Positions 2,675-61,400 of a stretch of DNA of 64,000 nt are shown one piece after another. Position numbers and translations under genes: made by a program. This DNA comes from an uncultured Candidatus Saccharibacteria bacterium (lineage in GTDB: Bacteria > Patescibacteriota > Doudnabacteria > UBA920), in contig CAZYMS010000001.1 of assembly GCA_964648985.1 (NCBI GenBank), positions 1,215-65,214 of the forward strand, in the 5' to 3' direction. The notes under the pieces were generated by a model. The model did no database searches. It was not told where the DNA came from and worked only from the letters and a program-made list of their open reading frames with translations. Each line of letters starts with the position of its first letter. Position 1 is the stretch's first letter.

Positions 2675-4519
2675 TTGACAAAGAAGAGAGAAATAAGTAG
2701 AATCCTTTTTATGCGCTACACACTACAAAAGGACGCGCTGCTGGAAGCTGCGCGGAGCCACCTGGCGGAAGTCAGGGAAATTTTACAAAACAAGCTTGCG
2801 AAAGCTAAAGAAAATATTGGTGTATATAAGGAAAAGGTTAAAAAACTAAGTCCACCAGACCTTTACACCGCCCAGAGTCTTTTGAAAAAGAATGAACAGC
2901 TGGTAGAAGTGGCCAACGCACTCTATCCCTCACCATATTTTATAAAATGCACAGTTCAGTTCGACAGCCAAGAGAGTAGTCGGATTTTTTATTTCTCAAA
3001 ATTTGCCTTAGCAGAAGAAAATATTTATTCGTGGACCAGCCCTGCTGCAGTCCTTCGGTTTCAAGAACCCGGAACATTTGCCTACGCCTCGCCCGACGGA
3101 ACACAAAAAGGAACACTCCAAGAAAAAGAACAATACCTTATTACTGAGGGACACATTGTGTTCATGGCTGCTGAGAGCACCGAATACGCACGGCAACTTA
3201 TATATCAGGAACACTTCTCTAAACGCAAAACAGACTTTTTGTTACCAGAAATAGTGGAACAGATGGAAGCAGCGCAAGATAAAGCTATCCGCACAGCCCC
3301 ATCACGAAGCTTACTCATTGCCGGGCCCGCTGGATCTGGCAAAACCACTTTGGCACTACACCGCGTGGCCTACCTCCTCCAATCCCCAGACACTGCAGAG
3401 CGATTCACTGCGGAACGTACTTTAGTACTGGTAAATGACCACGGCACCCAGAAATACTTTGCAATGCTCTTACCTGAGCTCGGTATTACTAACGTGGCCA
3501 TAACAACTTTTGCCGACTTTGTATTAGAGAATATTGGACTACATGCATATACATACCAACCAATTGTAGGAGCTACGGAATACGAGCGCAACACATATGC
3601 GCACGAAAAAAATAGTGCTCTACAGGGTAGAGATGCAGTTACATACACCACAAACCCGTGGTCTGTACTCAAAACTACCTATGCAAATATTTTTAATGGT
3701 GAATATAGCTACTTACTTCGCGAGCAAGAATCTAGAAAAGTGCTCGACCGGTTCGATGTAACGCTTTTATTTCGGGCCTATTTGAATACTTTCGGCGGAC
3801 TCACTAACTACGAGACTGAGTACACACAGCTCAAAGGCGGAAAGGTCAGGCGCACAAAAAAGGCAGTATCAAAACAATATTCTCTCGTAATTTTAGATGA
3901 AGTACAAAACTATCTACCCGAGCAACTCCGGCTCATAGCGCAGTGTATTTCATCTGATGGGTCCTGCGTATATGTAGGCGATTTAGCACAACAAACCAAA
4001 CTGTTTACAATTCGGAACTGGGACCAAGTAGGGCAAGATTTTTCGGAAGAAAATACGGTCAGACTTCAAAAAGTATACCGTTCCACTAAACAAATATTGG
4101 AATACATACAAAACCAAGGATTCTCTGTGTCAATTCCTGAGCAAAGCCGTGAAGGAAAAGCCGTGGAGACCTATCAGTATTCTTCGCGTGCCGATATGGA
4201 CGCATTCATAGAAACTATCATAAACAGAAATGCAAATGTAACAATAGGTATATTAACTCTAGATCAAGAAACTGCACATGCGCACAGGGACAAGTACGCA
4301 AAGGCTGGCAATGTAAAAACGCTGAGCATTTCCGAAGCCCAAGGAGTAGAATTTGATGTCGTTATACTTTGCGATTTGAATAAGCTTGCTCAACAGCATG
4401 GTAAATACCCAGAAAACTTAGCATTACAAATTGCTGAAGTTAGTCGCGACTTACTCTATGTTGCCCTCACTCGGGCCATGAATGAACTATATATAGTAAA
4501 TGCAGCTCCGAATATATAA
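2675..4519 (+). CDS. SF1 UvrD-like helicase of the HelD (helicase IV) type
   Basis: N-terminal PYF...FYF...W.SP motif block typical of HelD. Walker A LIAGPAGSGKTT, Walker B VILDEV, and a C-terminal UvrD-like motif VALTRAMNELYIV. Confidence 0.6.
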   Translation: MTKKREISRILFMRYTLQKDALLEAARSHLAEVREILQNKLAKAKENIGVYKEKVKKLSPPDLYTAQSLLKKNEQLVEVANALYPSPYFIKCTVQFDSQESSRIFYFSKFALAEENIYSWTSPAAVLRFQEPGTFAYASPDGTQKGTLQEKEQYLITEGHIVFMAAESTEYARQLIYQEHFSKRKTDFLLPEIVEQMEAAQDKAIRTAPSRSLLIAGPAGSGKTTLALHRVAYLLQSPDTAERFTAERTLVLVNDHGTQKYFAMLLPELGITNVAITTFADFVLENIGLHAYTYQPIVGATEYERNTYAHEKNSALQGRDAVTYTTNPWSVLKTTYANIFNGEYSYLLREQESRKVLDRFDVTLLFRAYLNTFGGLTNYETEYTQLKGGKVRRTKKAVSKQYSLVILDEVQNYLPEQLRLIAQCISSDGSCVYVGDLAQQTKLFTIRNWDQVGQDFSEENTVRLQKVYRSTKQILEYIQNQGFSVSIPEQSREGKAVETYQYSSRADMDAFIETIINRNANVTIGILTLDQETAHAHRDKYAKAGNVKTLSISEAQGVEFDVVILCDLNKLAQQHGKYPENLALQIAEVSRDLLYVALTRAMNELYIVNAAPNI

Positions 4520-4715
4520 CGTCTGATTTCTTATTAAGGTAAGTATTAATTATATTTTTCATGAAACCCTCAGTCATTCCCGCGAACGCGGGGTTTGGGT
4601 CGGCTTACCAGCTGACACGTACTAAATGCGCCGTGAGAACGGCACTGGATTCCCGCATACACGGGAATGACAATACTTTTGGAAGGAACCTATTAGATAT
4701 TAGGAATTAGGCAAT

Positions 4716-4745
4716 AAAAAAGCCGCCTTTGTAGGCGGCTTTTTT
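4716..4745. terminator. Bidirectional intrinsic terminator (A6-GCCGCCT-TTGT-AGGCGGC-T6)
   Basis: Perfect 7-bp GC-rich stem flanked by an A-run and a T-run, immediately 3' of the rpoC stop and downstream of the helicase gene. Confidence 0.7.
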
Positions 4746-7700: not shown

Positions 7701-8724
7701 ATAAATCGTTCAAATCTGAAGCAGCAAAACGCCCCCCATCGAGCTGTACCATAGGGCGAAGGTCTGGAGGAATAACAGGAAGGTTGCCAATAAGCATCCA
7801 CTCCGGTCTGAGACCGGCGGCAATAAATGATTTTGCAACTTTAAGCCGACGAAGTGCCTTCTTCGCTGCTTGTCCTTCTAGGTTTTTTAAAGAAGCCTCA
7901 AGATCGCTTGCGAGGGTTTCAAGGTTTACTTCTTCAAGCAATCCCTTAAGACTTTCTGCACCAATACCAGCAGTAAATACTGGGCCATACTTCAATGACA
8001 AGTCGCGGTATTGCAATTCGGAAATAACCTGCATGCGGCGAATGCTTTTCAGCTCAGAGCGAGCCTGGTCACGAACCGACTCAAGGCTGGAAACCTCTTT
8101 TTGCCAGACATCTTTGAGGCGAGTAACTTCTGCGTCAATCTTAGCAGCGAGGACATCTACGTCTGTACCTTTACCATCCGCCTTCATTTGAGCACGGCCT
8201 TTTTCTATAAGCTGTTGATAGCGAGTTTCAATCTCTTTCTTTTTAGCCTTAAACTCATGCTCTATCTGCTCCATCATGCCAGTACGAGCTTCGTCATCTA
8301 CAGACGTAATAATATAGGCAGCAAAATAGACAACCTTTTCAAGTTCTTGCACACCAAGGTCAAGCATAAGACCAATGCGGCTTGGTACACCGCGAAGGAA
8401 CCAGATATGCGCCACTGGTACGGCCAATTTTATGTGGCCCATACGCTCGCGACGAACAGATGCCTTCGTAACTTCTACACCACACTTATCACAGACAATC
8501 CCCTTGTAGCGAATGCGTTTGTATTTACCGCAATAGCACTCCCAGTCTTTAATAGGACCGAAAATCTTTTCATCGAACAACCCTTCCTTTTCAGGACGTT
8601 GGGTGCGGTAATTAATTGTTTCCGGTTTTGTAACCTCGCCATGGGACCATGACAAGATAGTTTCCGGAGAGGCAAGCTTAATGCGAACCCCCTTGAATTC
8701 TTCAGTTGCTGTTTGGGTAAACAT
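4753..8724 (-). CDS. rpoC: DNA-directed RNA polymerase subunit beta'
   Basis: [14 protein letters not shown] catalytic motif, zinc-finger [23 protein letters not shown], and full-length collinearity with beta'. Confidence 0.97.
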
Positions 8725-12262: not shown

Positions 12263-12779
12263 GACCTATTTACTTCTCGTGCCCCATTTTTTGCGACAAT
12301 GGGACACCACATCCCGCTAATGATTGGGATGTGTGCTAATGATCTTGTTTTGTTTGGCAAAAGGGGGTGAATCTTCCCAAGATCGTGAGTAAGGAGGTGC
12401 CGAATTATGTACTCTGTAAAATTTAGGATTTTTAAGTTTAAAAATGGACGAAATACATTTTTAAACGCAAAAATAGGCCTTTCCCGCTTGTTTAAGAGCA
12501 GAAAAGACTTCTGGGAATCCCTACCTAATAGAGTACATACGCATATATGTCACTATAATTTGTCAAGTCGCTTTTGTCAAGTCTTTTTGCGACTTTATCC
12601 ACCCCTATCCACAAGTGAGCGAGCGAGCCATTCTAGACTTTTTATCTTGGCAAATGAGTTGCATGAAATATCTATTTATTAGGTTATTAGGTCAATACGA
12701 CAATAAGTCCATCTCGCTCACGTTTATGAGCAATTAGGAGTTAGTCATTTCTTTCGGTATATTCTGATATACTTTCCTT

Positions 12780-13343: not shown

Positions 13344-13487
13344 AAGCAAGTGCCTAATTCCTCCATCGTCGCTAAAGCTATGGCGGACAAGTAATATCTA
13401 ATTTCTAATAGAAGACCAGGGCTTTAGGAGATTTGTATTATATTTAGACATTAGGAATTAGAAATTAGGTATTTCTTTTGGTAATCG

Positions 13488-14552
13488 ATGCACATTCAAG
13501 AAATTACTGATACAGATAAAGATATATACAATGCCTTTGTTGCAAGCAACAACGGCTCTTTTTTGCAAAGCTATGAATGGGGCGAATGGCAGAAAAAAAA
13601 TGGCAGGAATGCAAGGAGATACACGTGCACAGACGAAACAGGCGCAGTACAACTTGCAGCGCAATTTCTAGTATACCCCCTACCCCTTGGACAGTTTTAT
13701 TTGTATTGCCCATATGGGCCAGTGGCAAATTCCCAATTTCCATCCGCCAGCTGGCGGACCAATTTCCAAACGGCGATACAAGAATTAATAGGGCAAATCA
13801 AAAGAGACCATCCAAAAGCATTATTTACCAAACTGGAACCAATAACGGCTTTCAACCTACAACCTACAACCTACAACCTACAACCTAGTTCCCGAATTCA
13901 ACCCGGTTCCACTTTGCTACTAGACCTCACAAAAACTGAGGAGCAATTGCAAATGGAAATGCACCAGAAGACCAGGTACAACATTAAGGTAGCCAATAAA
14001 CATGGGGTAGTTATTAAAACAGGCACAGATACAACAGGTCCTGAAGCAGAAGAAATACTGATGCTCATTACCAAAACCACAGAAAGACAGGCATATAAAG
14101 GCCATTCGCTTTCCTATTACCAAAACTTTTGCAAATTCTTTGCAGAAGCAGTGCAAAGAAAAAATAATATCAGTGAAATTTCCAACTTAGACACTCCCAG
14201 TATGCAGGTACGATGGTATGGCGCTTTTTACCAGGAACATCTTTTGTCGGGTGGTATATTTATTGATTTCGGCAACACTCGAACATATTTATACGGTGGC
14301 TCAAATGATGCAAAAAAAAACATAATGGCCCCCTACGCTTTGCACTGGCACGCCATACGCGATGCAAAACAAGAAGCAATCACACACTACGATATGGGCG
14401 GCCTTGAAACCAGTTCTGGCACCACCCCTGGCTTTGCCCGCTTTAAACTCGGATTCGGCGGTGGGACAACCCACTACCCAACCCCCACAGATATATCTTG
14501 GCACCCTACCAATTACAAAGTCTACAGGATCGCAAAAAAAATATTGAGATAG
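13488..14552 (+). CDS. FemAB-family peptidoglycan peptidyl-transferase (aminoacyl-tRNA dependent)
   Basis: FLQSYEWGEW N-terminal block and KTRYNIKVANKHGV motif typical of FemABX. Adjacent to a Mur-ligase gene. Confidence 0.65.
   Translation: MHIQEITDTDKDIYNAFVASNNGSFLQSYEWGEWQKKNGRNARRYTCTDETGAVQLAAQFLVYPLPLGQFYLYCPYGPVANSQFPSASWRTNFQTAIQELIGQIKRDHPKALFTKLEPITAFNLQPTTYNLQPSSRIQPGSTLLLDLTKTEEQLQMEMHQKTRYNIKVANKHGVVIKTGTDTTGPEAEEILMLITKTTERQAYKGHSLSYYQNFCKFFAEAVQRKNNISEISNLDTPSMQVRWYGAFYQEHLLSGGIFIDFGNTRTYLYGGSNDAKKNIMAPYALHWHAIRDAKQEAITHYDMGGLETSSGTTPGFARFKLGFGGGTTHYPTPTDISWHPTNYKVYRIAKKILR
13853..13887 (+). repeat. Perfect heptanucleotide tandem repeat (CAACCTA)x5, in frame inside the FemAB-like CDS
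   Basis: Five exact copies read from the sequence. They encode NLQPTTYNLQPS. Confidence 0.9.
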
Positions 14553-15063: not shown

Positions 15064-17694
15064 TTATTTCGACACAAATTCTCCGGCTTCATTTACATCT
15101 ATAGTTACATCTCCCCCGCGGTCAAGCTGTTTGGAGAGGAGGAGTTTGGCTATAACGGACTCAACATGGTCCTGAATGTAGCGACGGATGGGACGGCCAC
15201 CAAGGAGCGGATCGAAGGCTTCGGTCGCAACTTTGTTAATGGCTGCTTCGGAAAAACCAAGTTTGATTTTTTTCTCGAGCAGTTGTTTGGTCACTGCACC
15301 AAGCTGGATACGAGTAATTCGCACTACTTCATCTGGCACAAGCGGTTTGAAGAGGATAACCCCATCAAAACGGTTAAGGAATTCTGGGCGGTAGTAATTT
15401 ATAAGAATTTTTTCTAGGAGCTCAGATTTAATTGAGTCTATATCCCTCCCCTCGCGTATGCCTGCTTGTATTTCCGGCGTGCCAGCGTTAGAAGTGGCGA
15501 TGATTATGGTATGCGTGAGGTCGAGTGTTTGCCCTGTCGCGGTAGTAATACGACCGTCTTCAAGTACCGCCAAGAAGAGGTTAAGCACATCAGCACTTGC
15601 CTTTTCAAGCTCGTCTAGTAAAAACAAACAAAATGGGTATGTTTTAAGATGGGTTACAAAGGGAGTAACTACTTGCTGCCCTGGGCTACCCACCAGTTTG
15701 CGCATACCATCGTCGCCCCGATATTCAGACATATCAAGCCGGAGCATATAGCGCTCGTCACCGAAATATACTGCGGCAAGGGTCTTGGCGAGCTCTGTCT
15801 TACCTACACCCGTAGGTCCTACAAACAAGAACGAGGCAAGCGGGCGCTGGCCACTTGAAAGACCGCTACGTGCGCGGCGCATACCTTCCGATACAGCAGT
15901 CACTGCTTCCTTTTGACCTATAACACGCTTGCCAATATCATCTTCCAACCGAAGCAGCTTTTCTGCCTCACCCTCAGTGAACGCACTCGTAGGTACGTGG
16001 GTCTTTTCCGCTACAACTTCTTGTATAACTTGCGGTGTAATAAGTTTTGCCGGACCCTTGGCTGCAGTCTTCACTTTGTTCGCCGCCTCTTGGAGCACTG
16101 AAATAGCTTTTTGTGGCTGACCCACATCTTTAAAGTATTCGTCTGTAAGTCGCACCGCTTCTTGTACTGCCTGGTACTCAAAGAAGGCGCCAGTCTGCCC
16201 TTCCAGCTGACTTGCGCGCATACAACTCGCAAGCATAACACCTTGCTCGTTTAAGTCCTTGAGTTCATATGTCACAAACCGCTCATCAAAATTAGCGCTA
16301 TTACGTAGGGTGGTTTGGTAGTCTTCTGCGGTAGTAGTAGCTATAACCCGGATAGAACTATTCTCCAAGTGATTCACCAACACCTCAAGTACGGACAAGC
16401 CTTCACTACCAGAAGCTTTGGCGAGTTGCTGCACATCATCAAGCGCGAAAATAATATTACCACTGTGCTCAGCTTCATGAAAAATATTGAGCAGGGCTTG
16501 CTCTGGGCTCACCTGACTTCCAAGTATGCCGGCAAGCTCTAAACGAACGAGACGCTTATCCTGCAACGCATATGGTACCTGCTCAGATGCCATCCGATAA
16601 GCCAAATCGGCCAGCACTGTACTACGGCCAGTCCCAACAGCACCTTTAACCAGTACACTCTTACCACTGTTGGCCATCAGGTCCATTATAGTGTCTGTAT
16701 CTGCATCGCGGCCGCGTGTAAGAGGTAGGCGATGGTACTTGGCGGCTATGGTTAAGTCAACGCTAAATTGATCCAGGTATGGCGTAGGTACTGCGGTAAG
16801 ACCCTTGTTTATACCTTTATCGCTTTTGTGTCGGGCAAGTTTACGAAATATTTTATCTTCTTCAAAGAGAAGGTCTATGTTGAAAATCCAAGCTGCTATA
16901 ACCTCCAGCTTGTCATAGGAAAGATCCATGTTAAAGAACAGTTTTTGTACGGGATGTTCGTCGGGAAGCTCAGTTGCAAGCGCGCACAAGAGCATAAGCG
17001 GGTCCACGGAACGGTTGCGCAATTTTAGACTTTCGGACAAAGCCACAAAAGGCACCCGAGCAACATACTCGCTCTCTTTTGTAAGGTCTAAGCTAGGTAG
17101 CATTTGCTTGAGTTGATCCGTAAGCTGGTCTGGGCTTACACCAAAACGATAAAACACAAGTTTAATAGATTCGTGTGCAAGCAAGGCAAGAAAAATATGT
17201 ACTGTGGTAGGTTTTTCACCCGCAATTCCAGGGACGGAGTTCCATATCTGCCTAGCACCCTTAGTGAACAAGTGATACACATCCACAGAACGCCCAGAAC
17301 TAGTCCACTTGCTTACGTTCGCCCATGACAAGACCCGCGTTACTTCATATTCAGCCGCAGCCTTGATCCGCCGCGCCCATAAGTACAATGCCCCCACTGC
17401 GCCGATCCAAACAAAAATGTTGAACCAGTGAGGTTGAACAAAAAACAATAAAGTAAACTCCTCTGTACCTACCGTCACTGCACCAAACACAAACGCAACA
17501 GCCCCCATACCGCATACTATATAGAGAACCATGTCTACCAGGCCATTTGCTGCTTCAGCTGCCTTTTCTCCCGCTATACGTATTGAGGAAAAGCTACCAG
17601 AAAACGAAAAGGCTGCGTTGCCATTGTGCGCCTCAAGCGGCCAACCACCGCTTGTCGGAGTATACTCAAAATTTTGTTCTACAGATTCATCCAT
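15064..17694 (-). CDS. Clp/Hsp100-family AAA+ ATPase (ClpB/ClpC-like), N-terminally membrane-anchored, with degenerate D1 motifs
   Basis: D2 Walker A FVGPTGVGKTELAK, Walker B LFLLDELEKA, and a C-terminal GGRPIRRYI block. D1 Walker A reads GAVGTGRST (Lys to Arg) and Walker B reads ALDDVQ (DE to DD). Two hydrophobic helices (LVDMVLYIVCGMGAVAFVFGAV and IFVWIGAVGALYLWA) precede the Clp_N repeats. No IGF/L ClpP-binding loop is seen. Confidence 0.8.
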   Translation of the reverse strand: MDESVEQNFEYTPTSGGWPLEAHNGNAAFSFSGSFSSIRIAGEKAAEAANGLVDMVLYIVCGMGAVAFVFGAVTVGTEEFTLLFFVQPHWFNIFVWIGAVGALYLWARRIKAAAEYEVTRVLSWANVSKWTSSGRSVDVYHLFTKGARQIWNSVPGIAGEKPTTVHIFLALLAHESIKLVFYRFGVSPDQLTDQLKQMLPSLDLTKESEYVARVPFVALSESLKLRNRSVDPLMLLCALATELPDEHPVQKLFFNMDLSYDKLEVIAAWIFNIDLLFEEDKIFRKLARHKSDKGINKGLTAVPTPYLDQFSVDLTIAAKYHRLPLTRGRDADTDTIMDLMANSGKSVLVKGAVGTGRSTVLADLAYRMASEQVPYALQDKRLVRLELAGILGSQVSPEQALLNIFHEAEHSGNIIFALDDVQQLAKASGSEGLSVLEVLVNHLENSSIRVIATTTAEDYQTTLRNSANFDERFVTYELKDLNEQGVMLASCMRASQLEGQTGAFFEYQAVQEAVRLTDEYFKDVGQPQKAISVLQEAANKVKTAAKGPAKLITPQVIQEVVAEKTHVPTSAFTEGEAEKLLRLEDDIGKRVIGQKEAVTAVSEGMRRARSGLSSGQRPLASFLFVGPTGVGKTELAKTLAAVYFGDERYMLRLDMSEYRGDDGMRKLVGSPGQQVVTPFVTHLKTYPFCLFLLDELEKASADVLNLFLAVLEDGRITTATGQTLDLTHTIIIATSNAGTPEIQAGIREGRDIDSIKSELLEKILINYYRPEFLNRFDGVILFKPLVPDEVVRITRIQLGAVTKQLLEKKIKLGFSEAAINKVATEAFDPLLGGRPIRRYIQDHVESVIAKLLLSKQLDRGGDVTIDVNEAGEFVSK

Positions 17695-17705: not shown

Positions 17706-18044
17706 TTACGCGAACAAGCTAAATAGTTGGTAAATAATCATGACAATAGCTAGCGGAAGTGCTAGTACGTGAAATAAAAAAAGGGCAAAAGCAAATACAA
17801 GCCTGGCTGCTGTCCAGAAAAAAATGAAAAAGAGCAAAATAACTCGAAGAAAAATACTAATGATTCTACCTTGCCGGGTAGTATCACCGTATAAAGGCTG
17901 GGTAATATTACGCAAAAAAATAACGAGCCCTGTAGAGCGCAAAATGTAGCGAAACCTTGACTGGCAATGCCGCCACGCAAGCGTAAGTCCTTCGCTATAC
18001 CACCATATGGGAAAGTTAAATATTGAAAGTGGTTGATTGTTCAT
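17706..18044 (-). CDS. Small integral membrane protein (112 aa), upstream and co-oriented with the ClpB-like gene
   Basis: Three to four hydrophobic segments, 12-bp gap to the next gene. Confidence 0.45.
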   Translation of the reverse strand: MNNQPLSIFNFPIWWYSEGLTLAWRHCQSRFRYILRSTGLVIFLRNITQPLYGDTTRQGRIISIFLRVILLFFIFFWTAARLVFAFALFLFHVLALPLAIVMIIYQLFSLFA

Positions 18045-18245: not shown

Positions 18246-19595
18246 ATGATACGTGTGATAAAAAATTTTGCTCGAAAACTTATACCTGCTGGAATATTTA
18301 AGGCTGCCCAGCCGTATTACCATGGTTTACTTGCTACATGTGCCCACTATTATTACGGACAACCCAGCAATAAGCTTATTATAATAAGCGTAACTGGTAC
18401 TAAAGGCAAAACCTCTACCGCGCATATTATCTACCAAACCCTTAACAACTTAGGAGCTCCGTGCGGATTAGTCACCACTGCAGTAATTGATGACGGCTCT
18501 GGACAGCGCATGAACGAATATCGCATGACACAAATGTCCGGCCCAGTTACTCACAATCTTCTTGCGCACATGGTAAAGGCAGGAAAAAAGTATGCGGTTG
18601 TGGAAGTATCCAGTGAAGGACTAGCTCAGCACCGACATCTAGGCGTTAATTTTGATATAGCAGTATTTACCAATCTATCGCCCGACCACGTAGATGCCCA
18701 CGGAAGTTTTCAAGCGTATAAAGAAGCCAAAGGAATACTGTTTAAGACACTCGGTAAGTTACAAGTTACAAGTTACAAGTTACAAGTAAATCCGGTTATA
18801 GCAAAGACAATTGTTTCGAATGTAGATAGTGAGCACGGGTTATATTACCTCAATTTTAAGGCGGATAAGCATATCACGTACGGCATAGAAAATTCCTCAG
18901 CGAATCTAGTGGCGAAGGACATCCAAACTTCAACAAATGGCAGTGTATTCAACTTGTCACTTGTCACTTGTCACTTGTCACTACCCGGCAAATTTAATAT
19001 CTATAATGCGCTTGCTTCAGTGGCAGTAGCTGAGTCGCTCGGGTTCAATAAAGAGGTAATAGCAAAAGCGTTAGAGAAGCTACAGCCAATTCCGGGGCGC
19101 ATGGAAGTTTTACAGGTAGAACCCTTTACCGTACTTGTAGATTACGCTCATGAAAAAGCATCTATGACCGCACTCTATGAGACAGTAAAAAGCTGGCCAC
19201 ACAAACGCATTATTCAAGTATTTGGCGCAACAGGTGGCGTGCGGGATAAATCCAGACGAACCGACCTGGGAACCCTTGCGGGTAAGTTTACAGATATAGC
19301 TATAATTACAGATGAAGACCCATTCGACGAGGACCCACAAACTATAATTGATGATATTGCAGACACAGCAGTAGCAGAAGGTAGGGTTATTGGAAAAGAT
19401 TTATTTAGGAACTCAGATCGCCGCGGCGCCATAGCCCAAGCCCTTTCTCTTGCCAAGCCCGGGGACCTAGTACTCATAACAGGTAAAGGAGCGGAACAAA
19501 AAATCGCCCGTGCCAATGGCCAGTACGAAGAATGGGATGATCGGATAGTTACACAAGAACTACTCTCGGAACTGTCGCGAACCCCTAACCCGTGA
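18246..19595 (+). CDS. Mur ligase family protein (MurE/MurT-like) lacking the canonical N-terminal domain
   Basis: P-loop VTGTKGKTSTAHI, DYAHEKASM, C-terminal ITGKGAEQ. Central and C-terminal Mur ligase domains are recognisable. Confidence 0.7.
   Translation: MIRVIKNFARKLIPAGIFKAAQPYYHGLLATCAHYYYGQPSNKLIIISVTGTKGKTSTAHIIYQTLNNLGAPCGLVTTAVIDDGSGQRMNEYRMTQMSGPVTHNLLAHMVKAGKKYAVVEVSSEGLAQHRHLGVNFDIAVFTNLSPDHVDAHGSFQAYKEAKGILFKTLGKLQVTSYKLQVNPVIAKTIVSNVDSEHGLYYLNFKADKHITYGIENSSANLVAKDIQTSTNGSVFNLSLVTCHLSLPGKFNIYNALASVAVAESLGFNKEVIAKALEKLQPIPGRMEVLQVEPFTVLVDYAHEKASMTALYETVKSWPHKRIIQVFGATGGVRDKSRRTDLGTLAGKFTDIAIITDEDPFDEDPQTIIDDIADTAVAEGRVIGKDLFRNSDRRGAIAQALSLAKPGDLVLITGKGAEQKIARANGQYEEWDDRIVTQELLSELSRTPNP
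18758..18787 (+). repeat. Perfect heptanucleotide repeat (GTTACAA)x4, in frame in the Mur-ligase CDS
   Basis: Four exact copies. They encode LQVTSYKLQV. Confidence 0.9.
18952..18982 (+). repeat. Perfect heptanucleotide repeat (ACTTGTC)x4, in frame in the Mur-ligase CDS; a near reverse-complement of the upstream (GTTACAA)n array
   Basis: Four exact copies. The reverse complement of GTTACAAGT is ACTTGTAAC, versus ACTTGTCAC here. Encodes SLVTCHLS. Confidence 0.9.
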
Positions 19596-19608
19596 GTGGC
19601 ATTCTTTC

Positions 19609-19632
19609 ATAATTCTTAATTCTTAATTCATG
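19609..19632 (+). repeat. Heptamer direct repeat (TAATTCT)x3 spanning the start codon of the TsaB-like ORF
   Basis: Read directly: ataattcttaattcttaattcatg. Confidence 0.7.
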
Positions 19633-19956
19633 ATTCTCCATCTTAATACCACGAAACTTGAACGGATCGAATTCAAGCTACTAGATGGTAAAAAAACCAT
19701 AGCCGAGGATACTGTAGCACTTGAATATCACGAAAACGGTGACATACTTAAACACCTTGAAGCATTTTTGCGAAAACAAAAAGTAAAGAGTTTGGCATCG
19801 GGCTCTAAAAACCTACAACCTACAACCTACAACCTAATTACTGGTATTCGCGTTTCTGCCGGCACCGGTTCTTACACCGGCATCCGTGTAGGGACTTCTA
19901 TTGCGCAGGCACTAAGCCTTGCCTGGAATGTGCCTTTAAAAATTAAGAGCACCTAA
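19630..19956 (+). CDS. TsaB/YeaZ-like protein, N-terminal domain only (108 aa)
   Basis: ITGIRVSAGTGSYTGIRVGTSIAQALSLAWNVPL matches the TsaB GPGSFTGLRIG...A.ALA...P motif region. The ORF ends about 100 aa short of a typical TsaB. Confidence 0.5.
   Translation: MILHLNTTKLERIEFKLLDGKKTIAEDTVALEYHENGDILKHLEAFLRKQKVKSLASGSKNLQPTTYNLITGIRVSAGTGSYTGIRVGTSIAQALSLAWNVPLKIKST
19810..19836 (+). repeat. Heptanucleotide repeat (AACCTAC)x3.9, in frame in the TsaB-like CDS; same unit and phase as the array in the FemAB-like gene
   Basis: Encodes NLQPTTYNL, the same peptide as at 13853-13887. Confidence 0.9.
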
Positions 19957-28669: not shown

Positions 28670-28706
28670 CTCTCATTACTTATTTCTAACTACTAATAAC
28701 TATACT

Positions 28707-53503: not shown

Positions 53504-53697
53504 GTGGATATGTGGACAAACCGGAATAGAATCAAGAATTATGAATTAAGAATTAAGCGAAAACATATTTTTTATCGACAATGAGTTCGAACAACTTGTG
53601 TATAGTCCGTGTGAGTAAATGGGGAAAAGTGCGGACTTTGTCTTTGGGGCATGAGTTATCAACCACCTATTAGGGGTTTGTACTGTGCTTTTCCACA
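53504..53697. promoter_or_regulatory. Cluster of DnaA-box-like 9-mers in the dnaA-dnaN intergenic region
   Basis: tgtggacaa and gtggatat (overlapping, 53504-53519), ttatcgaca (53572-53580), ttttccaca (53689-53697). Each is one mismatch or fewer from TTATCCACA. Confidence 0.45.
53529..53560. repeat. Degenerate heptamer array (GAATAGA/ATCAAGA/ATTATGA/ATTAAGA/ATTAAGC) upstream of dnaN
   Basis: Read directly. The reverse complement matches the TTAATTCTTAATTCAT motif at 19609. Confidence 0.55.
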
Positions 53698-55476: not shown

Positions 55477-58400
55477 CTATTCAGTTACTATCTCGGGTTC
55501 CGGGTCAACTGCGGGGGTAGGTTCGGGGGCCGGTGTTTCACTTTCTGCGCCATCACCACCTTCCTCAGTGGTGGGGGATGGAGGGTCTGTTTGGTGTGTA
55601 TTTTCTGGTGGGGTATTGTTTTGTACTACTGGTGCCTGCTGAACGATTTGTGTTACTTGCTGGAAAGTGGACAAAAGCATGACCCGAATAGAGCCTGTAT
55701 TGTCGGGGGTGCTATCTAGAGAAATTCCAAATACTTGACCCTGGGCTTCCGATGGAAGCTTTGCAGCTTTTCCAGCAAAGGTTGATGCAGTAAGCTTGTC
55801 GCCTAGAGATACGCTCCCATTCACAAATACCTTTTTGTAGGTTCCTGTTATGACGATGCTTACATATTCACCTGGTTTAATAGTTGTTGGGTCGTCTGTA
55901 ATAGGGGAGTCAGGGCTTATATTAAAGTCTGAAAGGTTGCGGTCTGCTACGCCAACAATAATTGTGTTTGCACCTGCTACTGCTTTTGCAATGGTGAGAG
56001 TGGGTTGGTCACCCAGTATTGGTTCCTCTGTTGCGCCAGTAAGCATAAGTAAGTCCCCTTGGTGTATGGTTTCGTTGCTGGTATTCTTTGCCACTATTGC
56101 GGTAGAACCTAATATTCTACCAAGCACAGCAACGTCTTTCTTTACAACCAAGGTGCCCGTGAGTATGGCAGTGCCTTTGGTGTTTATGGTAAAGAGGGAA
56201 GTATCTGCATTGGTTATTTCCAGTACTATGCCACTTGCGAGGTTTGCATTAATATGAACGGTACCATCGTTTGCCACGAGGAAGTTGTCCATGCCGTCCT
56301 TTTGTAGCTGTAAGAGATTACCACTATCCTTTTGATTTATTATGAACGAAGTATCGTGGCCTTCAATTGTTCCGCCGCCAACTTCATTTATTACCTGTCC
56401 ATCTTGTTCTCCAACAGTAAAGGTAAATGATGGTTTGGAGACATTGCCTTTAGGGTCTTGAATAAGAGAGGTGTTGTTTAATTCTTTGGTTGCATTTACC
56501 AAAGCAGCAAGGATTGGGCGGTCCGATAGAGATAGATAACCTTGTGGGTCAGTATCTACTGCCTCAGGGATTGCTGTTTGGATATTCTGAGCGCTGAATC
56601 CAGCATTAAGGAAAGTTTGGTCTAGGCCTGATAGAGCGTTCCAGCGATAGAGGATCGGATCTATTGCCATTATTGACGAAAGGCCGCGGTCAAATGCTCC
56701 TTGTACATCTTTTAGTCGAATATCAGAAGAGCTGGTAAGGTTCCCCGATGCATCTGAGCTCACAGTACCAGTGCCGAAAGCGTGGATACGGAAACCACCT
56801 GCTCCGGAAATGGTTACACGTTGGTTTACGCCATTTGTGAAGAACGCTATGGGGGCGTTGGCTCCATTGTAGAAGTTAAGCGAATTGGCGCCTCCAAAAG
56901 TCGTTTCAGTTGAGCTACTGTAAATCATCTGTCCGCCATATGCATTTGAATCATTTCCCAAGGCGATACGTGCGCTCGCGGAAGATCCGGAATTGTTATT
57001 ATAGACTCTGAGAATGCTATAGGTATTTTGACTCTTTTGAATATCTACCGTGCTTAGCGAATCAGGGGCGGCCGTTCCTATTCCAACTCGACCATCGTTT
57101 TGGATTATCAGTCCCGGGCTGTTTGATGAGTCAATTACGCTTAGTAATGCCGGTAACTTATCTGGGGTGGTGTCATTAGCGTTGTTAGAGAAAGCAGTGT
57201 CAACCGTCAGTGAGGTATCGGACGCAATAGCAGTAACCGTCCTGGTTTCTCCGGTAACTGTGATGCGGTCGCCCACGGCCAATTCAGTAAGAAACGCAGT
57301 GCCGCTGCCAGTAACTGTAGTTGATGCAGCTGGGTCGATATCTCCGGTTAGCTCAGATGTGGCATTTGCTTTAATATTTGCGGATCCGATGAGCCGCAAG
57401 CCTGGTTGACTAGTCACGTTGGAGATTGTTGCAAAATTGGTGCTTACGTCGCTAAATCTATATCTTGCTCCTGTTGTTACTCCACCTGTGCTGAAATCGA
57501 ATCCGCTTACGTTGCTTGTGGCGATTGAACCGTAGGTGTCGTATGCTTCATTGAATGTTTTAATATGATACGGAGCATATCCCACATCGCTTAATGAGCG
57601 TATATACATACCAGTGGTGTAACCGCTTGCTGCAGCATCCCATCCGTCAAAGTTGAAAGTGAATGCGTTTGATGTTGCGCTTTCACCACCCCCGACTGAT
57701 TCGCGGCTGTTGACTACTAGGCCCATGCTAGCGTTCGTGTTGCCCCTTGAGCCGTTACGCACGTATATACCTGCGGTCGACTGTTTTTCCAGTTGTGCTC
57801 CCCAAGCATAGTAGGCAGTAGTACCGTTGTTGATTATGAATGTTACTGTGCCGGTTGAAGAACCGTTAAAGGCTTGGGTAACGGTAAAGCGTTGCCAGCT
57901 AGTAGTAACTGTCACCGTGTTGGCGGTACCGGTTTGGTTCCCGGAGTCTAGTCGTAAGTTTACCGTGCCGGAGCCGGATGACTTTTTGAGCCACACAGAA
58001 CCTGTCCAGGTGGTGCTGGTAGAAGAAGTAGAGAGCCAGTCTGCTTGTTTTACGTTATCGGTAGAGCTTCCACCTGCGCCAATTGTGTCCGCAGTTGTGT
58101 AGCCGTCCGGTCCTGTGGTGCTGTTGGCGGTTATGCTGACACCTGTTTTGGTCCACGCGGCATTGTCTAATTCTTCCGTGTATTTTATACGATTTTCGCT
58201 TCTGCCAAATCCACCCTGTGGCGAGTACATATATCCAGAGTCCAAAAGCAGGTCTGATCCATCCCCTAAGTTTAATCTTTCAGATGGGGTTGTTTTTGCG
58301 ACACCTATATTACCGCCGGCAAATATTGCTGCGTAGTTCGTATCTCCGGAAGTTGGTTCTTCCACGTAGAGTCCAATCTTGGTGGTTGTGCCTGTGCTGT

Positions 58401-61400
58401 GGGTGTTTGAGTTGGCTATGTAAGCACCATAAGAGTTAAGTGTGCCTCCTGTAGTGAGCCTTCCGTTGGCTTGCGCGAATATACCATAAGAATTTACTGT
58501 TGCGCCGGTAGTGGAATCACTCGAAGTTGGTAAGAAATATCCGCCGTATATATTGGTTGTTCCACCGTTGCTGGCACCCGTGCTGCTGCTAGGGGCAGAG
58601 TAAATACCGTATATGTCCCTAGTATTTGCGGATATGGCACCTGTTGCGTTGGCTGAGAAATATCCGCCATAGAGGGCATATGAATTGCTGGTAGAGTCAG
58701 ATGTGACGTTGGAATACAATCCATAACCAGTTTTGCCTCCGTTTCCTGTCATAGTTAGATTGCTTTGCAAGTTGTAATTTGTTTTATTCGTAGCCGTGCT
58801 GTCGGTTCCGTCAATTTTTATGCCGTATCCGGTGCTAGTACTGCCGGAATAGTCTGGTGCAAAGTAGGCGAGTACGCCGGCAGTACTACCACTTCCTACA
58901 TCCGAAACGACTTTCATAAAACCAGAAGATGTCCCTGTGATAACCCCGGTGGACGTCGGACCAGTAAGTGAAAGGGCGGACCCGGTTGTTAGAGAAGTCA
59001 TGGATATTGCCTGACCAATGCCCACCGTTGAAGAGTTTGCCGCTAAGTTGATAAACGTGGCCGCACCTGTGGTGGAAGTAGAGCTAAGGTTAATAAGGCT
59101 GCCGGTGAATCCGGTGGTGGTTCCGGTCTGGGCAATGTCAATGTATTTAGCCGAGGTTTGGCTTGCGCCGTTGGCTGCGATAGACATCATGGTGCCGGAT
59201 GTAAGGCTGTTGCTGTTGAAGGCAAGGAGTCCGGTCCCCGTGTAAGCGCCACCATTTGCGCTAATGTTCAGTGCGGTACCGGTAGATGCTGTGCCCATCA
59301 CTAATCCCATAAGTTGGCCACCTGCCATAGATCCACCACCAGTGACCTGAATACCGGTACCGCTGGTAATGCCGGTGGTTGATATATTTAAGGCTGTGCC
59401 TGTAAAGCTGGCTGTATTATTTGTAAGGTTTACTAAGGTGCCCGCAGTAGAAGCGGACGAGGTGACATTGAGCAACCCTCCGGTAGAGGTGTATGCTCCG
59501 CTGTGGCTGATTTGTACTAAACCATTTGCGATAGCCGAAGTTCCCGAAGCAGACACTTTCAAAGCGGCGCCGCTTGTAATACCTGAGCCAGCAGCTATGT
59601 TTGTAATTGTACCGGTTGTTATGCCGGTGCCAGACACGCTTTGTACAACACCGCCTGTGGTTGCGTTGCCTGTGACGTTGAGTAGGCCGCCGCTGCCAGT
59701 GTATGCCCCACTTGCCGTGAGTTGTACTATACCGTTTGTTACTGCGCCAGTGGTGGCGGAAGTAACTTTTAAGGCTGAGCCGGATGTAAGGCCGGTAGCA
59801 GAAGAGGTGATAGAGAGGTTGTCTGTTGTGGTGGTAGCACCCCAGTCTAATGTTTGGGTAGTAGTGCCCATGTTTATGGCGCCATTGCCGCTGGGGTCGC
59901 CAATAGCGTCAAATGCCGTTGCCGCACCCGCGCAGCCTGTACAAGAAGTAACCGTTAAGGCGCCACCACTGGTAAGTTTTGCGACACTTGTATTTGCGAC
60001 TTGGAAGTCGAAAAAGTTACCCGTAAAGCTTGCAGGATTGGCCCCGATGTATGTTCCGTTGGTCGAGCCGCTGGAAAGAGCTGTGTTTGAAAGATTGAAT
60101 AATGCATGCGTTGCAGAGGCGTTTATAGCCGTACTAATAGAAAGGGGGTCTACCGGGGTGCCCGTGCCAATGCCAAGCCCTGTCGAGTTCCAAATTCCCG
60201 TGGTTGAGTTGTTAACGCTGAAGGTAATGTTGCCACCGCTTGATCCAGAAACACCAGCTCTTAATAGAAGGTTGCTTGCGCCGCTGTCTCCATTGTTTCC
60301 AACTGAGACAGTTGCCGCTGGTTGGTACCAATAGCCAGAAGTGGCACTAAAATTGGTAATGCCTTGACCGATTGTAGAAATACCACCGGCCTCATTTAGG
60401 CTAAATGCAGTTGTTCCATTAAGTTTTACATCTATTATTCTTCCGTTAAACCCGCTTGGTGCGTTTATACCAAGACCTGTGCCGCTTGTGGACCACCCGG
60501 TAGACGTCGCTCCGCTTGCTTCGACTAAGAGTTGGGGTTTGGTGGTGGTTGAGTCACCACCAGTGAACCACGAGCCACTTAATTTGGCTCCTGGGTTGGA
60601 TGCTGCACCGTTCGATCCAATGTGTAAGAAAGCGGTAGGGGAGGTGGTCCCTATTCCAACATTGCCACCAGTAAATACTGCTCCATAATTGTTGGTTGCG
60701 CCGGTTGGAGCATCAATATATAGCCCATATCCGTTGGTTACGGCGCCTGAACCAGTAGTAAGGTCTGCCGTGCCAATTCTGAGCCCTACCGCATTGGTAA
60801 TGGCTACGCCAGTAGAACCGGCTGCTATGGGAGCAGAAGAAATAGTTACGCTGTTTGCGTTAGTAATCGCGACTTGTGTTGCGTCATTGTCTTGTATGGT
60901 AGGCGCGTTAAATAAGAAGCTGTCCATTGCAGTAGTAACAGCAGTAGAGCCAGTAAGCGTAATAGTAGGGGAGGTAAAGGTCCCCGTCGTATACTCTGCG
61001 CTTGTCGCGCTTGCGACGGTTTGGGCTGGGGCGACGACATGTAAAGCGGAGCTGGGGTTAGTGATGCCAATGCCGATTTCTCCCGCAAAATAGCTGTCAG
61101 AAGTTGAGGAGCTGTATATGCTGTAATTTCCAGTAGCGGGTACACTAGAACCTAAAACCAGGTTAATGTAGTCTGAGGCACTCGTAGAAGCATACGCGTG
61201 CAAACCTACATTGAGCACCCCGCCACCTGCTACAGTAGCCTGGAATTGACCTGCTATATTTGTATACGCATTGTTTGCTATTGCGTACAGACCTATGTTC
61301 GTATTGTCAGTCCCGCTAGTGCTGTTGGCAAAGTACCCAGTATAGGTAGTTTGGTTGTTAGCACTCGTGCCAGCAGAAGAAACATTTAATGCCTTTTGAG

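Follow-up and report, generated by a model that had tools for sequence, protein, structure and literature searches.

The presence of one perfect tandem heptamer, in frame, in two unrelated conserved genes raises the question of how a 7-nt repeat comes to lie in coding sequence and what keeps its copies identical. The genes concerned lie in a 64,000-nt stretch of DNA from an uncultured Candidatus Saccharibacteria bacterium (contig CAZYMS010000001.1, GTDB lineage Doudnabacteria), referred to here as the window, for which a first-pass annotation had reported five exact copies of CAACCTA (written AACCTAC in the other rotation below) in a FemAB-like gene and about four in a TsaB-like open reading frame (ORF). 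Both arrays were recovered, with 5.0 and 3.9 copies at 100% match, and translation agrees that each is in frame and encodes NLQPTTYNL(QP). Between the FemAB and TsaB-like genes sits the gene for MurE, which was found to carry two perfect in-frame arrays absent from that annotation (Table 1). Comparison with orthologous loci shows that the arrays occupy fixed hot sites, which are heptamer-periodic in orthologs and mostly of constant length.

That the FemAB and TsaB-like arrays stand in the same phase, as the annotation noted, is trivial and adds no coincidence. As 3 and 7 have a greatest common divisor of 1, any frame of a 7-nt array gives the identical cyclic 7-aa peptide, making the phase uninformative and the NLQPTTY peptide a by-product of the unit. 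Likewise, with every unit position falling in turn at codon positions 1, 2 and 3, a homogenised array is without purely synonymous sites.

Loci and array census

A scan of genome contigs with MurE identified syntenic RuvA-FemAB-...-MurE-TsaB loci in metagenome-assembled genomes (MAGs) of Patescibacteria, the Candidate Phyla Radiation (CPR), labelled as Doudnabacteria or 'Saccharibacteria'. Loci L001 to L007 and L078 are syntenic, with MurE 60-79% identical to that of the window. Protein searches and exact-protein look-ups added L161 to L163 (MurE 83% identical), L164, L165 to L167, L168 to L172, which are identical to the window, and L174, in which the TsaB gene is 88% identical at the nucleotide level; exact-protein look-ups with MurE itself and with the ORF at 17706-18041 gave no match. 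A scan of metagenome contigs returned relatives at 48% identity or less and hence no strain-level data. Arrays were counted with Tandem Repeats Finder (TRF) in 161 sequences, taking those of at least 2.7 copies with at least 85% match.

Excess of period-7 arrays

Where order-3 Markov sequences lead one to expect 0.02 perfect period-7 arrays with 2.7 or more copies, the window has five; a scan of periods 4-12 gave no perfect arrays of periods 5, 6 or 8-12. The TRF census gave 23 period-7 arrays in the window and its close relatives (181 kb), 107 in other CPR loci (1.42 Mb) and 2 in non-CPR loci (0.36 Mb). Period 7 stands about 4-fold or more above periods 5, 6 and 8-12 in the CPR loci (107 vs 26 or fewer arrays) and alone shows a heavy-tailed distribution of perfect-array lengths. 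There are 3-5 copies per array, with perfect arrays bunching at 30-35 nt and none exceeding 35 nt in 1.32 Mb of non-redundant CPR DNA. An assembly artefact is excluded by the occurrence of orthologous arrays in many independent MAGs and assemblies.

Inside ORFs of at least 120 aa lie 106 of the 130 CPR arrays (~82%), the density being 7.4 per 100 kb of coding vs 13.4 per 100 kb of non-coding DNA, such that arrays are about 2-fold rarer in coding sequence. The host genes belong to a few housekeeping families, FemAB and MurE (both confirmed by profile searches) and TsaB, with the 5'-3' exonuclease, TsaD, valyl-tRNA synthetase (ValRS), HolA and UvrB as further hosts assigned by eye from sequence motifs. 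Units containing a stop codon do occur in ORFs, each time with the very substitution that abolishes the in-frame stop, as in the TsaB genes of L001 and L161, in L010, in L031 and in the DNA encoding DLRFKIEDLRF peptides. The periodicity is also visible in proteins, where 11-aa segments encodable by a 7-nt unit (at least 10 of 11 residues matching) number 20 in 120 MurE homologs and 27 in 120 FemAB homologs, with none in shuffled sequences, and concentrate at two sites in each of the two proteins.

In keeping with the annotation, which had envisaged a genome-wide repeat family comparable to the short tandemly repeated repetitive (STRR) sequences of cyanobacteria, period-7 arrays are a lineage-wide phenomenon of that kind, dominating the tandem repeats in about 1.6 Mb of CPR loci, and are here common in coding sequence. 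Its notion of a single dispersed repeat family fails, with units varying by site and by genome and AACCTAC occurring at FemAB and TsaB sites only. No further AACCTAC array of at least three copies was found in the window and none in the first 164 loci scanned, with the loci added later having it only at the orthologous FemAB (L165/L166 and L167) and TsaB (L174) sites, the sole other occurrences in about 2 Mb of related DNA.

Unit turnover at sites of mostly constant length

In a PDB alignment with Mycobacterium tuberculosis MurE, site 1 amounts to about 12 inserted aa, and this insertion is old. Both MurE segments are equal in length among close orthologs, L005 with its large insertion being the exception, and the majority of 70 MurE homologs, to as low as about 45% identity, keep both at constant length. 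The unit at site 1 is AAGTTAC in the window and L161, AAGAGAC in L002, AAATTAC in L004 and AAGTGAC in L005, being degenerate in L001 and L003 with none in L007 and L078, while at site 2 it is ACTTGTC in the window, ACTTGCC in L161 and L002, CAATTTT in L001 and L164 and ACTTACA in L003. Copies at site 2 are 85% identical within a genome vs 45% between genomes at the same position, with corresponding values of 79% vs 68% at site 1. The MurE units undergo concerted evolution at constant length. Among the homologs, site 2 encodes lineage-specific 7-aa repeats (QFSIFNFQFSI, ELRIANYELRI, FMIHDSKFMIH). In L005, G+C-rich in-frame insertions of about 28 aa were seen exactly at heptamer hot sites, one at ~4264-4347 in MurE site 2 (DNLRPVIPTDGFAEWRDLSTRGIARDDD) and one at a second site near the MurE C-terminus.

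In FemAB, Pfam matches flank the array on either side, and the annotation had taken its peptide, like that of the TsaB-like protein, for an insertion. PDB alignments contradict this, as neither the FemAB site, compared with Staphylococcus aureus FmhB or Weissella FemX, nor the TsaB site, compared with YeaZ, is any longer, and close orthologs have a segment of equal or similar length at the FemAB site and at both MurE sites. The FemAB site carries ACAACCT/ACCACCT in L007 (41% amino acid identity) and three copies of ACAACTT in L003, is degenerate in L004 and L161 at the same or nearly the same length, and has lost the array in L001. The exact LQPTTYNLQP peptide was found in two FemAB orthologs 43% identical to that of the window, whose DNA (L165/L166 and L167) has the window unit, perfect over 4.6 and 3.7 copies; the units of L165, L167, L007 and L003 are that of the window or 1 nt away from it. 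Distant orthologs with the same peptide encoded by non-repetitive DNA had been considered in the annotation; the peptide does recur at such distance, but the nucleotide repeat is kept with it. In a nucleotide comparison of the window with L165, identity is 89% in the array columns vs 51% over the remainder of the gene and 34% at third codon positions. Judged from these orthologs the FemAB array is old, and the recent expansion proposed in the annotation is at odds with a perfect array of the same unit in L165 and L167. The lack of synonymous sites may help explain the persistence of the FemAB unit in divergent orthologs.

Other orthologs encode different 7-periodic peptides at the FemAB array site (for example FEIRNSKFEIR and QSSIFNLQSSI), and a second FemAB hot site near residue 85 behaves alike (for example NCKLQIANCKL and DLRFKIEDLRF). 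In L165/L166, MurE is 78% identical to that of the window and the syntenic FemAB just 43%, with the FemAB proteins of L001 and L161 at about 70%. FemAB seems, from these comparisons, to exist as two divergent types at one locus, each with an AACCTAC array at the same site. The FemAB protein P0131 has about 15 aa inserted in mid-array (LQPTT...YNLQP), a further example, beside L005, of an insertion at a heptamer hot site.

AlphaFold2 (AF2) models based on deep alignments gave a predicted local distance difference test score (pLDDT) of 92 for MurE and 93 for FemAB. MurE site 1 forms a loop and short helix at 176-181 (pLDDT ~97), site 2 a beta-hairpin with strands E233-237 and E240-244 (pLDDT ~94), and the FemAB array a loop and strand E130-133 (pLDDT 87-95). 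As AF2 places the MurE and FemAB arrays in confident loop, hairpin and strand elements, they are predicted to encode ordered elements, not disordered linkers.

At the TsaB site, NLQPTTYNL is found only in the window and in relatives at least 90% identical (P0248, P0249 and L174). Relatives at 65-73% identity carry KKLTTDNRQLTAI or KKPTTDNLQLTTI, encoded by ACAACTG/ACAACTT arrays in which one copy has a change abolishing the in-frame TGA. Because these relatives differ, the window TsaB unit is derived, within an ACAACnn family that it shares with the FemAB unit, and the identity of the FemAB and TsaB units is attributed to this common family, combined with convergence or else with ectopic conversion. 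L174 has the same array with the same number of copies, although the gene as a whole has diverged by 12% in nucleotide sequence. The TsaB-like protein is short (homologs 93-112 aa; ORFs read from the loci 89-120 aa), and as this length is conserved in all relatives the gene is a genuine shortened form, comprising the N-terminal half, and not a pseudogene. The spacer before TsaB in L174 is homologous to the RuvA-FemAB spacer of the window (L174 1-116 vs window 13350-13485), with MurE not there, and AAAGCTATGGCGGACAAGTAATATC, which is single-copy in the window, is present in this L174 spacer, as might result from rearrangement of the locus or from an intergenic cassette that is portable.

Copy-number stability

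Copy number was invariant among the few near-identical genomes that could be compared, namely L161, L162 and L163, which are three assemblies of one species and 100% identical, L165 and L166, which differ by 2 single-nucleotide polymorphisms in 21 kb with identical arrays, and L174 and the window. No frameshifted allele repairable by +/-7 or +/-14 nt was found among about 130 arrays from over 100 genomes, with the addition or removal of 7 or 14 nt at arrays outside long ORFs giving only trivial fusions to the start of the adjacent gene. In Logan (k=31), five contigs, each from a different sample (L168 to L172), all begin at window position 18953, 30 nt (k-1) inside MurE site 2. Full-length MurE and FemAB of the window species are absent from Logan and TsaB, with its 27-nt array, is present; arrays of at least 31 nt appear to break k=31 assemblies, implying some heterogeneity at or beyond the array. 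The shared Logan start would mark a graph branch at an in-array 31-mer, for which a longer allele and a co-occurring relative sharing the array are equally good explanations.

These observations bear on the idea that the arrays are phase-variable contingency loci, in which one-unit slippage would toggle FemAB, MurE and TsaB to give cell-wall or tRNA-modification heterogeneity. In its favour, the units are not multiples of three and lie within ORFs, cell-envelope genes make up two of the three hosts, and the Logan starts in MurE site 2 fit a branch arising from a longer allele, though they would arise equally from co-occurring relatives such as the P0248/P0249 or P0008 strains. With no frameshifted or copy-number variants found, phase variation is unsupported; copy number is the same in independent samples and in the divergent L174, the arrays are short (up to five copies), and the hosts are single-copy essential housekeeping genes (ValRS, HolA, TsaD, MurE), not surface or restriction-modification genes. 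As such we consider this explanation to have very little probability.

Origin of the arrays

The arrays are probably, if by no means certainly, heptanucleotide simple sequence repeats (SSRs) homogenised by misalignment or short-tract conversion between neighbouring units and filtered by selection on frame, length and stops. Perfect copies need a homogenising process at the DNA level, and we infer the homogenisation step from the pattern of concerted evolution. During replication or repair the nascent strand would misalign by one 7-nt unit, leading to slipped-strand or short-tract conversion, in which neighbouring units and the array edges would take on the sequence of one unit, in many cases with the overall length unchanged. 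Purifying selection would then purge frameshifts, stops and peptides unacceptable to the fold, such that arrays would persist only at structurally permissive sites.

A number of observations count against this mechanism. No slippage intermediates or copy-number variants were seen, and simple slippage predicts length steps of 7 nt (21 nt in frame), of which the ortholog alignments show none. The conservation of AACCTAC at 7/7 positions across 43%-identical FemAB genes that have otherwise reached saturation is only partly explained, because unbiased conversion should not slow substitution, and the site in question accepts many other peptides. The mechanism accounts neither for period 7 nor for the sharp stop at about five copies, and, because all loci were sampled around MurE, genome-wide statements are extrapolations. 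Array pairs with identical units make up 3/81 within genomes vs 20/3489 between genomes (permutation p ~0.01), an excess that local slippage does not predict.

The same excess favours ectopic or trans-templated copying between loci of one genome, by non-allelic conversion, template switching over a few kb or use of a common template, whereby the window TsaB array would have been overwritten with the FemAB unit; such copying could also add to local homogenisation. In the window both FemAB and TsaB have AACCTAC, with the FemAB unit being ancestral, as it is found in distant orthologs, and the TsaB unit derived. Likewise in L003 both FemAB and MurE site 2 have AACTTAC where site 2 of other close relatives has ACTTGTC, ACTTGCC or CAATTTT, and units are common to two ValRS arrays of L131 and to ValRS and FemAB of L140. 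However, there is no flanking identity past the array edges, donor and recipient would share homology of just ~5/7 nt per unit over ~30 nt, and the similarity within genomes may be partly compositional. Moreover, the TsaB site of relatives is already of the ACAACTG/ACAACTT type, one or two unit changes from ACAACCT, making convergence plausible, and overall we regard ectopic copying as a possible but unlikely origin. A functional nucleic-acid element, for example heptad-spaced sites for single-strand-binding or cold-shock-type proteins or long-range RNA pairing, would explain why the FemAB array is so much better conserved than its gene, and CspB is known to bind heptamer repeats with one protein per heptamer (PMC4679880). 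The arrays at MurE sites 1 and 2 come close to being reverse complements of each other (AAGTTAC vs GTCACTT, 1 mismatch per unit), with RNAduplex giving -31.3 kcal/mol for the pair vs -4.5 +/- 2.6 for shuffles, and the TsaD gene of L021 has two exactly complementary arrays 604 nt apart. Against this, inverted complementarity between arrays of one locus is not enriched (7/125 pairs vs a 3.6% background, p=0.16), duplexes across genomes are as strong as those within them, giving no covariation, Rfam has no match in the region, and units are so diverse between sites and genomes that no single sequence-specific reader fits, which leaves such an element improbable.

Selection at the protein level for a 7-residue repeat, as in two like hairpin strands, with the DNA periodicity being secondary, is consistent with the strands of MurE site 2 being offset by 7 residues and with the 7-aa periodicity of this site down to ~45% identity. 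Such selection predicts at most a 21-nt periodicity, whereas a 7-nt period couples neighbouring residues via overlapping frames without structural rationale; all 7-aa repeats examined at the DNA level were 7-nt periodic, intergenic DNA shows the same periodicity, and the peptides at one site vary widely among orthologs. We judge this explanation highly improbable. The annotation itself favoured a dispersed repeat family, STRR-like or mobile, that was recently inserted in frame, to which the identical unit in two genes, the perfect copies and the insertion of MurE site 1 relative to distant MurE lend themselves. At the FemAB and MurE sites, however, the segments of close orthologs are equal in length and their units are degenerate or differ, orthologs 43% identical already have the FemAB array, neither terminal repeats nor target duplications are seen, and further copies of the unit are confined to orthologous sites as described above, such that recent insertion is scarcely credible.

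Homogenisation between neighbouring units under purifying selection is therefore the explanation we prefer. Beyond it we offer, very tentatively, the broader claim that CPR/Patescibacteria possess an active and possibly templated heptamer homogenisation, which would overwrite coding DNA in stretches of ~20-35 nt without altering their length, carry units from locus to locus within a genome and keep some of them, such as AACCTAC in FemAB, nearly constant as the gene around them diverges to 43% identity. If true, a 'molecular drive' at the DNA level would shape ordered structural elements of essential enzymes, or else a nucleic-acid signal would lie within coding sequence.

Intergenic repeats and neighbouring genes

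Heptamers also occur in the spacers of these loci, the window having three intergenic arrays that the annotation had not listed (Table 1). A recurrent intergenic motif consists of 2-4 ATTAGnn heptamers, several followed by ATTTCTTT, lying 10-40 nt upstream of the starts of RuvA, FemAB, MurE and TsaB, with 8 matches in the window vs 0.23 expected. The motif looks like a lineage-specific promoter or leader element made of heptamer repeats, a role predicted from its sequence and position. The Logan contig L173 terminates within an intergenic ATTAGnn array. An Rfam scan of 12.2-20.1 kb returned zero matches. Neighbouring genes include an 876-aa ClpB/ClpC-like AAA+ protein with a long N-terminal extension, the first ~160 aa of which have no Clp_N match, and elsewhere in the window there is an ORF of 2717 aa.

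Table 1. Heptamer arrays, host genes and other features of the window, with positions of the intergenic motif in related loci
Feature	Position (strand)	Description
FemAB-family peptidoglycan bridge-forming transferase gene	13488-14552 (+)	354 aa; Pfam PF02388 E=1e-43; PDB alignments with FmhB/FemX
(CAACCTA)x5.0	13853-13887 (+)	100% match, in frame; encodes FemAB-family aa 122-134, (F)NLQPTTYNLQP(S)
MurE (UDP-MurNAc-tripeptide synthetase) gene	18246-19595 (+)	TIGR01085 335.7 bits, above cutoff; PDB 2wtz E=2e-57
(AAGTTAC)x4.6, MurE site 1	18756-18787 (+)	perfect, in frame; encodes KLQVTSYKLQV, aa 171-181
(ACTTGTC)x4.4, MurE site 2	18952-18982 (+)	perfect, in frame; encodes NLSLVTCHLSL, aa 236-246
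TsaB-like gene	19630-19956 (+)	108 aa; TIGR03725 E=1.7e-10, below curated cutoff; PF00814 (TsaD) above its cutoff; YeaZ structures
(AACCTAC)x3.9	19810-19836 (+)	100% match, in frame; encodes (K)NLQPTTYNL(I) of TsaB-like protein
TTCTTAA/TAATTCT array	19606-19637	intergenic; 2.9 perfect, 4.6 imperfect copies; abuts TsaB-like start codon
ATTAGGA/ATTAGAA/ATTAGGT array	13444-13473	intergenic, upstream of FemAB start; belongs to recurrent (ATTAGnn)3 motif
(AGAATTA)x4.3	53528-53557	intergenic, imperfect
ATTAGnn motif, window	4692-4717, 12726-12760, 13391-13409 (-), 13443-13485, 28679-28697 (-)	
ATTAGnn motif, relatives	L001 9950-9973, L003 9956-9977, L106 6967-6997, L118 9309-9332, L161 ~8365-8400, L174 ~80-116	
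ClpB/ClpC-like AAA+ protein gene	15064-17694 (-)	
ORF	55477-63630 (-)	

Comparison with known repeat systems

According to two papers that both cite Mrazek et al. 2007, heptamer SSRs are the most abundant class of long SSR in many prokaryotes, with polymerase slippage being proposed as their source (PMC4679880, PMC4692102), and the SPADE survey likewise covers the heptanucleotide class (10.1101/309039). With lengths of 27-35 nt, 100% match and their excess over expectation, the window arrays are heptanucleotide long simple sequence repeats (LSSRs), defined as tandem iterations of a 1-11 nt unit whose length exceeds that expected from genome composition, sharing with those of other prokaryotes the head-to-tail 7-nt units, the over-represented period, the many unit sequences and the lack of an established function (PMC4679880, PMC4692102, 10.1101/309039). 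Known LSSRs are reported to be mainly intergenic, with non-triplet units avoided in coding sequence, whereas here most arrays lie in long ORFs of essential genes, and unlike those LSSRs they sit at orthologously conserved sites, at constant length, with up to five copies and no copy-number variation observed. In the literature we found no paper on heptamer or simple sequence repeats in Patescibacteria/CPR and no report of in-frame heptamer arrays at conserved housekeeping-gene sites of CPR bacteria.

Work on the tandem-heptamer excess of prokaryotes, known since 2007 and still unexplained, has dealt almost exclusively with intergenic DNA. In the loci described here the periodicity is found in frame, in parts of housekeeping enzymes that are both essential and structurally ordered, throughout a radiation of uncultured bacteria. 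A mutational, homogenising force can, on these data, dictate the amino acid sequence of loops and hairpins. The coding context makes analysis easier, as orthologous sites can be aligned, the constraints of length, frame and stops are explicit and concerted evolution can be measured. Should unit sharing within genomes and the deeply conserved state of some units be borne out, they would suggest a mechanism that is as yet undescribed. One practical consequence is that k=31 assemblies can break at the arrays; alignments of CPR genes and estimates of their ratio of nonsynonymous to synonymous substitution (dN/dS) may also be confounded.

The cyanobacterial families STRR1, STRR2 and STRR3 have the units CCCCAGT, TTGGTCA and CAACAGT. 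The arrays of the window do not belong with them, having units such as CAACCTA, AAGTTAC and ACTTGTC and relatives in Patescibacteria/Doudnabacteria, with AACCTAC present at just two loci in 64 kb. Cyanobacterial STRRs, the GGGGAYT repeats of Nostoc and the GGGAATC repeats of Xanthomonas are likewise tandem heptamers with a preference for about four units, and in Xanthomonas the positions are conserved between related genomes with the sequence varying, as here (PMC4692102). Those repeats form one to a few G-rich families per genome, intergenic and depleted in coding sequence, with up to 26 units and G-quadruplex potential (PMC4692102), whereas the arrays described here are A/C/T-rich, diverse in unit, coding and in a CPR host. 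The TAACTGA repeats of Beggiatoaceae, cyanobacteria and Bacteroidetes are also tandem heptamers, of 2-6 copies, lying in intergenic DNA, usually just upstream of start codons, with stops in all forward frames (PMC4679880). The arrays here have other units and are translated, the nearest unit being AACTGAC, found in relatives only (L001 TsaB and L031 HolA) and 1 base from AACTGAT, a rotated form of TAACTGA.

The contingency loci of Haemophilus and Neisseria, among them the 7-bp repeats at hmw, resemble the arrays in having non-triplet units placed to alter expression (PMC2651432, PMC8262952), and the window units do lie within ORFs. Contingency loci have many copies, vary both between and within strains and act on surface or restriction-modification genes, whereas the arrays here are invariant where this can be tested, with no ON/OFF alleles and with housekeeping hosts in place of surface, antigenic or restriction-modification genes. 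In the tandem repeats of Borg elements perfect nucleotide repeats within ORFs likewise dictate the peptide (PMC9879509), and compared with these the arrays described here have 7-nt units, are old and fixed in position, and encode ordered structure.

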